Virus record (IMG/VR): IMGVR_UViG_2541047712_000002
DNA length: 64,000 nucleotides
Reading direction: 5' to 3' (one strand)
From: a virus
Lineage: Duplodnaviria > Heunggongvirae > Uroviricota > Caudoviricetes
Part shown: positions 23,069-23,201 of the stretch, piece after piece
Layout of the letters: each line of letters opens with the position of its first letter
Position numbering within the stretch: the first letter of the stretch is position 1
Notes under the pieces: generated by a model
Databases searched by the model: none
The model's input: the letters and a program-made list of their open reading frames with translations, nothing else
Told to the model about the DNA's origin: nothing
Translations under genes and position numbers: made by a program

Positions 23069-23201
23069 GCCGGTTTAGCTCAGCGGGAGAGCGCGAGAGC
23101 CAAAGCATCGTTTCTACTTCGGTAGACAGCCTTGCTGGTCAAATGACAACGATTCGATGTTAGGCCAGAGGTCAGCGGTTCGAGTCCGTTAACCGGCACC
23201 A
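23069..23201 (+). tRNA. tRNA-like gene with ~60-nt internal insertion (intron-containing tRNA or tRNA-derived element); anticodon not assignable
   Basis: acceptor GCCGGTT (23069-75) pairs with AACCGGC (23191-97) followed by ACCA; canonical D-arm TAGCTCAGCGGGAGAGCG at 5' end, T-arm AGCGGTTCGAGTCCGTT at 3' end; interior holds a UUCG-tetraloop hairpin. Confidence 0.35.

Follow-up and report, generated by a model that had tools for sequence, protein, structure and literature searches.

Here we describe X, a tRNA-like gene of 133 nt in a 64-kb stretch of DNA from IMG/VR virus record IMGVR_UViG_2541047712_000002. The stretch, called the window below, is an SSU5-like phage-plasmid, and X occupies positions 23069-23201 on its plus strand, counted from the first letter of the window. 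X is very probably a conserved, non-decoding RNA built on a tRNA scaffold, and not an intron. Its acceptor stem, D arm and T arm have been kept by compensatory changes, while the anticodon arm has been swapped for a conserved structured module. We would classify X as a tRNA-derived, non-decoding stable RNA of phage tRNA clusters, and it occurs in at least four unrelated phage groups, intact in every case. A more far-reaching proposal, in which a stable, non-decoding, tRNA-shaped RNA carries a junction module for binding and serves as a decoy or inhibitor of Toprim-type tRNA nucleases, is offered as plausible, if somewhat short of an even chance.

X alternates with ordinary tRNA genes. The tRNA region of the window (22400-23800, 1.4 kb) is 98% identical to Escherichia phage CMS-2020a, and in this phage, as in Cyrano and P7 and likewise in P1, the slot of X is filled by an ordinary 76-nt tRNA-Thr(UGU). 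Alignment of X with the tRNA-Thr(UGU) of CMS-2020a gave identity over the first 15 nt and the last 31 nt. In the interior, the 18-nt anticodon arm of the tRNA, CTGCCTTGTAAGCAGGAT, corresponds to 76 nt in X (23095-23170), the net difference being +57 nt, and the D loop reads CGGGA in X and TTGGTA in the tRNA. The initial annotation had described an insertion of ~60 nt; the extra interior sequence is real, but it is a replacement of 18 nt by 76 nt and not an insertion. The ends of the replaced tract vary by lineage, with the D loop of tRNA-Thr being kept in pSTM_Phi and not in the copy of the window.

The same alternation is seen elsewhere. In P1-like plasmids of E. albertii, X lies in a Dam...TerB...DnaB context, which is the site of tRNA-Thr in P7. 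Among N4-like phages, the slot that holds X in Jgk1 and in locus L019 holds an ordinary tRNA with anticodon AAU in IME11, and the acceptor stem of this tRNA (GTCCACT/AGTGGAC) is intermediate between those of X in Jgk1 (GTCCGTT) and L019 (GTTCACT). Taken together, the CMS-2020a/P7 slot and the IME11 slot show X and a resident tRNA as alternatives at one locus in no fewer than two unrelated phage groups, the resident not being a tRNA-Thr in every case. At the IME11 locus (L274, 898-1055, minus strand) the anticodon AAU is itself unusual, and directly upstream is a tRNA-like gene for which ARAGORN reported an undetermined 2-nt anticodon.

Among E. coli plasmids of the SSU5-like type, five carry a full-length copy of X (100% identical). 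Further full-length copies were found in P1-like IncY plasmids of E. albertii (three, 97.7%) and in Salmonella (three plasmids, 93-94%), in the N4-like coliphage Jgk1 together with a 70-kb contig related to it, in a viral contig of 43 kb, and in several contigs of jumbo size (135-369 kb, plus one of 866 kb). The collection comprises 14 distinct sequences of 130-133 nt from SSU5-like, P1-like and N4-like phages and jumbo contigs, amounting to about five lineages, and all 14 lie within tRNA clusters, on the tRNA strand. Homologues were collected by exact-word patterns, which members diverged in both halves of the module would escape. A single metagenome scan gave 10 loci, from which L142 was excluded as a non-member, and contributed the new variants L139, L143 and L145/L147. 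Two scans of species-representative genomes yielded no true member, and two degenerate patterns run on viral contigs found nothing past the 12 true loci of that collection. With a family covariance model, R1, the E-values of which are rough, members scored 117-161 bits and any tRNA at most 54 bits; the best ordinary tRNAs were phage tRNA-Thr(UGU) at 54 bits and T4 tRNA-Thr at 51 bits. X is not in Rfam 15, full-text search found its core sequence in no paper, and keyword searches returned no description of it.

The RNAalifold consensus of the 14 sequences is the structure that was also derived by hand: an acceptor stem of 7 bp, a D stem of 4 bp, a helix P1, an internal loop, a helix P2, a four-way junction bearing the hairpins P3-P5, and a T arm of 5 bp. 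In the window, with all elements on the plus strand, the 5' strand of the acceptor stem, GCCGGTT (23069-23075), pairs with AACCGGC (23191-23197), which is followed by the discriminator A (23198) and an encoded CCA (23199-23201), as read from the sequence and from the alignment to tRNA-Thr. The D arm GCTC/AGCGGGA/GAGC (23078-23092) has its 4-bp stem in 14 of the 14 sequences, and its loop, in which G18 and G19 are present, is unlike that of the allelic tRNA-Thr. At the other end, GTC, the end of the variable region, and the T arm AGCGG/TTCGAGT/CCGTT together span 23171-23190 (the T arm alone being 23174-23190) and show no difference from the allelic tRNA-Thr. The acceptor stem, D arm, T arm, ACCA tail, length of 133 nt and place as the third gene of the cluster, all of which had been read by the initial annotation, are thus present, as is the TCTAC-TTCG-GTAGA hairpin that it had reported, at 23113-23126.

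Between the two tRNA halves lies the module. G26, C27, a purine run GAGA and the 5' strand of P1 occupy 23093-23101. P1 is a short helix in which GCC pairs with GGC (23163-23165), with one compensatory flip, in locus L014; it stands beside a purine-rich mismatched stretch, 5' CGAGA facing 3' CAGAG, the pairing register of which appears ambiguous. An internal loop (AAA/UA) that is unpaired in the consensus structure, AAA at 23102-23104 facing TA at 23161-23162, separates P1 from P2. The latter is a helix of 6 bp, NNAUCG/CGAUNN, formed in the window by GCATCG (23105-23110) and CGATGT (23155-23160). The junction then carries P3 (UCUAC-UUCG-GUAGA), P4 (CAGC-N3-4-GCUG; CAGC-CTT-GCTG at 23127-23137) and P5 (GUC-N3-4-GAC; GTC-AAAT-GAC at 23138-23147), with no linkers between them, and closes through a return strand of 7 nt, J5/2 (AACGAYY; AACGATT at 23148-23154). 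The segment 23155-23170, made up of the 3' strand of P2, TA, the 3' strand of P1 and CAGAG, supplies the partners of 23093-23110.

Across the 14 sequences, standard pairs are found in 99.6% of cells and 12 pairs are changed on both sides. None of 500 shuffles matched either the observed paired fraction or the covariation score, and when the partners were slid by 1-3 columns pairing fell to 27-42%. The covarying pairs comprise six of seven in the acceptor stem, three of five in the T stem, and one each in the D stem, P2 and P1. The second pair of P2 is CG in 8 sequences, GC in 5 and UA in 1, and the first is GU or AU. The X genes of Jgk1 and L019, which are syntenic orthologues, differ at three acceptor pairs, all of them compensated, which speaks for selection acting on the tRNA fold of X as such. 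X as a single sequence also folds better than expected (z = -3.7; none of 200 shuffles folded as well), and this, together with the recurrence of the 130-133-nt architecture in 14 distinct sequences with compensatory changes, places the feature noticed by the initial annotation above chance. Folded alone, the module adopts essentially the same structure as its minimum-energy fold, P3 included, with one additional A-U pair in P2 and a pair probability of 0.92-0.96 for this helix. An alternative pairing, P2' (ATCGTT/AACGAT), was considered as a switch and rejected; it has a probability of <0.01 and is broken in L143 and Jgk1.

Variation is distributed very unevenly over the gene. In the acceptor stem 13 of 14 columns are variable and in the T stem 6 of 10, and for the stems of P3, P4 and P5 taken with the UUCG loop and J2/3 the figure is 0 of 30. 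All 14 nt of P3 are invariant. The stems of P4 and P5 are likewise invariant, with loops of 3-4 nt in which 7 of 8 columns vary (every column in the P4 loop), as does length, and in J5/2 four of seven columns are invariant, the first three (AAC) among them. That invariant stems and variable loops are interleaved within one and the same set of sequences suggests purifying selection on the junction core, beyond what recent transfer alone would give. The invariance of either half of the module did not arise from the search itself, since a pattern drawn from P3 only and a pattern drawn from P4, P5 and J5/2 only recovered the same loci. Both the acceptor stem and the discriminator base differ among X sequences, and such free variation would argue against recognition by one particular aminoacyl-tRNA synthetase.

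This pattern bears on two other accounts of X. According to the first, a DNA insertion, selfish or accidental, has inactivated a tRNA-Thr gene, and the resulting X has spread through recombination by way of the conserved D-arm and T-loop sequences and yields an RNA without function. X is indeed a rare allele that displaces a functional tRNA, and tract ends that depend on lineage, as in pSTM_Phi and the window, are what recombinational grafting would give. We nevertheless hold this account to be quite improbable, given the invariant stems with variable loops between them, the compensatory changes in P2 and P1, the three compensated acceptor pairs that separate the N4-like orthologues, and the intactness of X throughout at least four unrelated groups; moreover, there are no terminal repeats, no target duplication and no associated transposase or endonuclease. 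According to the second account, the module is a small ribozyme or a ligand-sensing aptamer and the tRNA body a mere carrier. A compact junction with invariant nucleotides in very short stems and variable outer loops is typical of ribozyme and riboswitch cores, and the module does fold alone. However, the isolated segment matched none of 4,227 Rfam families at E up to 10, inspection by eye showed no core of the hammerhead, twister or pistol type, there is neither an expression platform nor an adjacent regulated gene, and self-cleavage would wreck a scaffold that is under selection, so that this account, too, is improbable.

The initial annotation could not place an anticodon stem, and the standard tools fared no better. 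ARAGORN made neither a tRNA nor a tmRNA call at X, and the Rfam tRNA model (RF00005), applied to isolated X, reached 12.2 bits against a gathering score of 29, with the interior skipped. Searches of the 64-kb, 1.4-kb and 151-nt sequences with the 4,227 Rfam families returned no match to X at the gathering score or at E up to 10. In RefSeq, the identical sequence on plasmid pTHO-010-2 is annotated as a 133-nt "tRNA-OTHER" with the same boundaries, and not, as the initial annotation had allowed for, as a standard tRNA with different ones. X possesses the 7-bp acceptor stem, the D arm and the T arm with a GTTCRANYC-type loop of a canonical tRNA; a 5-bp anticodon stem with a 7-nt loop and U33 is absent, even when one deletion is allowed.

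That X might be an intron-containing tRNA that is spliced to a functional product was among the suggestions of the initial annotation, and it is not supported. In its favour are the tRNA-like body with extra internal sequence, the RefSeq label, which denotes a tRNA of undetermined type, and locus L014, which alone has an ordinary 5-bp stem flanking the module. For the copies in the window, Jgk1, L017 and L019, a brute-force search with strict criteria found no single internal deletion that leaves a 5-bp stem and a 7-nt loop with U33. With relaxed criteria a consistent anticodon arm was obtained only in L014, from the ordinary stem beneath the module. Four of the five lineages tested therefore have no anticodon arm that a single deletion could restore, and there is no anticodon anywhere, nor is one left after removal of the extra sequence. 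The Rfam model Intron_gpI gave no match at the gathering score or at E up to 10, and the segment, at only 76 nt, is far under the size of a group I intron. A bulge-helix-bulge of the archaeal type, with its 4-bp helix between two bulges of 3 nt, could not be drawn by eye either, the borders being internal loops, GAGA/CAGAG and AAA/TA, around a helix of 3 bp. Bacterial tRNA genes interrupted by group I introns share with X extra sequence in the anticodon region, but there the intron is longer than 200 nt, is recognised by the group I model and is spliced out to give an intact anticodon loop; X shows none of these traits. We also know of no tRNA splicing endonuclease in E. coli or its phages. 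With no restorable anticodon arm and no match to an intron model, X has no anticodon and is not an intron-containing tRNA, a reading to which we would give almost no weight. Of the other readings in the initial annotation, that of an expanded arm fits in the form of an expanded or replaced arm, and that of a tRNA-derived regulatory RNA fits in the form of a tRNA-derived non-decoding RNA, with a compensated scaffold and no anticodon arm.

In the mechanism that we propose for this non-decoding RNA, X would be co-transcribed with the neighbouring tRNAs and released by RNase P and 3' trimming, processing that is expected because the tRNA elbow, the acceptor stem and the encoded CCA have been kept. 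It would then accumulate as a stable RNA of ~133 nt unable to read codons, its tRNA body acting as a handle for processing and stability that presents the junction module, and the module would bind a conserved protein partner. The favoured candidate for this partner is a Toprim-type, tRNA-directed defence nuclease, such as P2-OLD or PARIS AriB, for which X would be an uncleavable decoy or inhibitor. The slot may be telling here, as tRNA-Thr(UGU) is the preferred target of P2-OLD and a prime target of PARIS AriB, and X would sit in a cassette of counter-defence tRNAs (Asn, Tyr and the Thr slot). Argued by analogy, action of X against tRNA-cleaving defences is possible but must be regarded as tentative, and we make the link to defence with low confidence, from genomic position and the published specificities of two nucleases.

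The published specificities are as follows. PARIS AriB cuts Lys(UUU) and Thr(UGU) tRNAs as well as tRNA-Asn(GUU) at positions 40/41 and also reads the D loop at U16-U17, and non-productive complexes with viral tRNAs are a possibility brought up by its authors (PMC12409363). PtuAB of Retron-Eco7 targets tRNA-Tyr(GUA) (PMC12445682, PMC12673091). The cut site of OLD carries the motif CNG at positions 28-30 of the 5' strand (PMC12445682). X keeps a Thr-type body in the enterobacterial phages; in this Thr(UGU)-type body its positions 28-30 read GAG and not CNG, so that the OLD cut site on the 5' strand would be gone. The cluster of the window (Asn, Tyr, the Thr(UGU) slot and Ser) and that of L014, with the order Tyr(GUA), Lys(UUU), Ile, X, Asn(GUU), Pro, look like counter-defence cassettes. 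An RNA without an anticodon does not share the anticodon of a targeted host tRNA, and any counteraction of tRNA nucleases by X must take a route other than restored decoding.

The tRNA-Thr(UGU) allele can be compared with the same rules. In P1/CMS-2020a-type alleles (L003, 2172-2247; L002, 1583-1655) there is a full 5-bp anticodon stem with CUG at 28-30, CAG at 40-42 and A37, which is the published P2-OLD motif, and position 39 is a G, in contrast to the U39 of the AriB recognition sequence UAAU. Judged by the published rules, this tRNA might be sensitive to OLD yet resistant to AriB.

Several observations weigh against the decoy or inhibitor proposal. A phage with X forgoes its own tRNA-Thr(UGU), which is absent both from the 64-kb window and from the whole genome of Jgk1. 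In the OLD study, a resistant phage tRNA-Thr gave the host tRNA no protection by competition (PMC12445682). The invariant part of X is the module, which is quite unlike an anticodon arm, and the free variation of the scaffold makes a partner that reads the tRNA-Thr body unlikely. The helices of P3, P4 and P5 show no variation, which leaves covariation unable to speak for or against them. X is rare: of ~770 plasmids matching its 3' end of tRNA-Thr type, 11 have it, and so do 6 of 5,426 complete E. coli genomes. An all-against-all BLASTP comparison of the ORFs of 17 loci found no protein gene consistently adjacent to it. In the jumbo contigs, the acceptor stem of X is not matched by any tRNA found in the fetched loci, and a recent hop of the module into a local tRNA, which had been considered for these phages, was rejected on the same finding. 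Finally, the decoy idea itself is drawn from position and analogy.

The same structural evidence would serve equally well for a module that binds a partner outside defence, be it the ribosome, EF-Tu, RNase P or RNase E, an enzyme that modifies tRNA or a phage protein encoded elsewhere, and that acts in host takeover or in the regulation of phage genes. The module is invariant across what appear to be very different hosts, as would suit a universally conserved partner, and the sequence of the scaffold is free to vary. There is also a precedent in species 1 and 2 of T4, stable RNAs in a phage tRNA cluster that are not tRNAs. This explanation has no candidate partner, given that no conserved protein gene lies nearby, and it leaves unexplained why X should occupy the Thr(UGU) slot beside Asn and Tyr genes in three lineages. 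We view it as a doubtful but real possibility, about as likely as the defence reading.

Smaller sequence features of X gave no further lead to function. An antisense role was considered and set aside; the only similarity of the module to the E. coli chromosome is an identity of 20 nt in the ylaC-pdeB spacer, in the sense orientation of pdeB, with E = 8. The 20 nt in question, TTGCTGGTCAAATGACAACG (window 23135-23154; L150 2501-2520), recur without a mismatch between ylaC and pdeB in 560 E. coli chromosomes, probably by chance. Inspection of X by eye for known motifs revealed no standard kink-turn, as the bulge would be 2 nt, and no hammerhead core. The sarcin-ricin-like CGAGAG and the T-loop-like UUCGA in J5/2 were discarded, neither being conserved. 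The CAG/CUG of P4 was likewise examined as an OLD-type CNG motif and given little weight, as such a motif is expected by chance in about half of such sets of stems.

By sequence, the nearest relative of X among known RNAs is the phage tRNA-Thr(UGU) of P1, P7, Cyrano and CMS-2020a, which shares its slot, flanks, acceptor stem, 5' strand of the D stem, T arm and ACCA; this tRNA has an anticodon arm, whereas X has the 76-nt structured module in place of those 18 nt. Nearest in kind are the species 1 and 2 RNAs of T4 (rnaC and rnaD), of 139 and 119 nt, which lie in the tRNA cluster on the tRNA strand, do not decode and are annotated merely as small stable RNAs. X resembles this type in that it is encoded inside the tRNA operon, shares the strand of the tRNAs and ends in a tRNA-like 3' domain with CCA; in rnaC the 3' domain is similar to a T arm. 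Unlike rnaC and rnaD, X has a complete tRNA scaffold in which the anticodon arm alone has been exchanged, and the R1 model gave no match to either at E up to 1. The same design is known from an artificial system. In the tRNA scaffold engineered by Ponchon and Dardel, a structured RNA reportedly takes the place of the anticodon loop or arm and is processed and stabilised in the manner of a tRNA. L014 even keeps a normal 5-bp stem beneath its module, in the way of the engineered construct; X differs in being natural, conserved and phage-borne, and in that a purine-rich irregular helix replaces the anticodon stem in most members.

Two further classes of tRNA-like RNA share features with X. Like tmRNA, X has an acceptor stem, a T arm and CCA and no anticodon arm, and in tmRNA a long helix exits at the site of the anticodon stem. 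Unlike tmRNA, X has a normal D stem and lacks an mRNA-like reading frame, pseudoknots and the G3-U70 pair, and the tmRNA searches at X with ARAGORN and Rfam were both negative. The Y RNAs (YrlA) are also non-coding and combine a tRNA-like module with another module, which is protein-binding in YrlA; their tRNA-like part lies in the interior, and the stem that binds Ro60 is made by the two ends (PMC4201824), whereas the ends of X form the acceptor stem. No Rfam match to Y RNA was found in X, and no gene family is recurrent across the loci, though rsr (Ro60) was not specifically sought.

X does not stand alone among tRNA-like genes of irregular length. In the jumbo-phage and N4-like contigs, odd-length tRNA-like genes of ~100-130 nt adjoin X (L140, 5328-5431; L139, 1849-1952; L017, 680-785; L004, ~2588-2716 and ~2868-2992; L141, ~3012-3140). 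These begin like a D arm and end with a T arm, acceptor strand and CCA, and their interiors differ; ARAGORN called none of them and the X model gave them only 20-25 bits. Such neighbours suggest that X is one of several families of "chimeric tRNA". On a still broader conjecture, X would be the first recognised of a class of natural "tRNA-scaffolded" phage RNAs, with interchangeable bodies and portable modules grafted by recombination, the module here being an inhibitor or decoy for an immune nuclease; in this full form we think the conjecture rather unlikely. The jumbo-phage contigs also carry tandem Arg(UCU)-Met/Ile(CAU)-Leu(UAA) tRNA triplets upstream of X (L145, 66-2073; L017, 258-1919; L140, 4193-5069).

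The operon to which X belongs has other elements of note. It is a same-strand cluster, Asn(GUU)-Tyr(GUA)-X-Ser(UGA), in which ARAGORN placed tRNA-Asn(GUU) at 22898-22972, tRNA-Tyr(GUA) at 22978-23064 and tRNA-Ser(UGA) at 23426-23512, all on the plus strand, the spacer from tRNA-Tyr(GUA) to X being 4 nt. The cluster lies inside a stretch of ~1.35 kb without convincing ORFs, bounded on its 3' side by a GC-rich hairpin with T runs on both sides (23669-23690), read from the sequence as the likely terminator of the tRNA operon. This protein-free operon contains hairpin-bounded elements at 22505-22640, 23205-23275, 23270-23425 and 23517-23592, the closing stems of which share a CACAACG...CGTTGTG theme, as in GTTGTGGTG...CACCACAAC around 23270-23425. 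In the element at 23270-23425 the ends are conserved and the interior differs in P7 (L002, 1950-2105) and in the N4-like IME11 (L274, 1515-1655, minus strand). None of these elements has an Rfam match, and they may be further uncharacterised RNAs or processing signals. The tRNA-Ser(UGA) scored 46.6 bits with the Rfam model for selenocysteine tRNA, for which the gathering score is 47; the long variable arm, and not identity as a tRNA-Sec, is the likeliest reason for this near-match. Elsewhere in the window, 40993-41411 on the minus strand matches the cspA thermoregulator (187.6 bits, E = 7e-50), which implies that the phage-plasmid carries a cold-shock-protein gene with a regulatory 5' untranslated region.

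Recent work argues that phage tRNA genes serve largely to counter tRNA-cleaving immunity, a resistant tRNA substituting for the host tRNA that has been cut. X, though unable to decode, is maintained by strong selection in the Thr(UGU) slot and has moved among P1-like, SSU5-like, N4-like and jumbo phages. If it does prove to be an RNA decoy or inhibitor, it would represent a different kind of counter-defence, an RNA anti-defence factor rather than a replacement tRNA, and would be a natural counterpart of the tRNA scaffold of RNA engineers. With X, a conserved structured RNA of ~60 nt is newly defined, in which the four-way junction is invariant and the size suits structural study. Genome annotation hides genes of this sort under "tRNA-OTHER", and the protein-free stretches of phage tRNA operons, with more elements still to be explained, are promising ground for functional RNAs.

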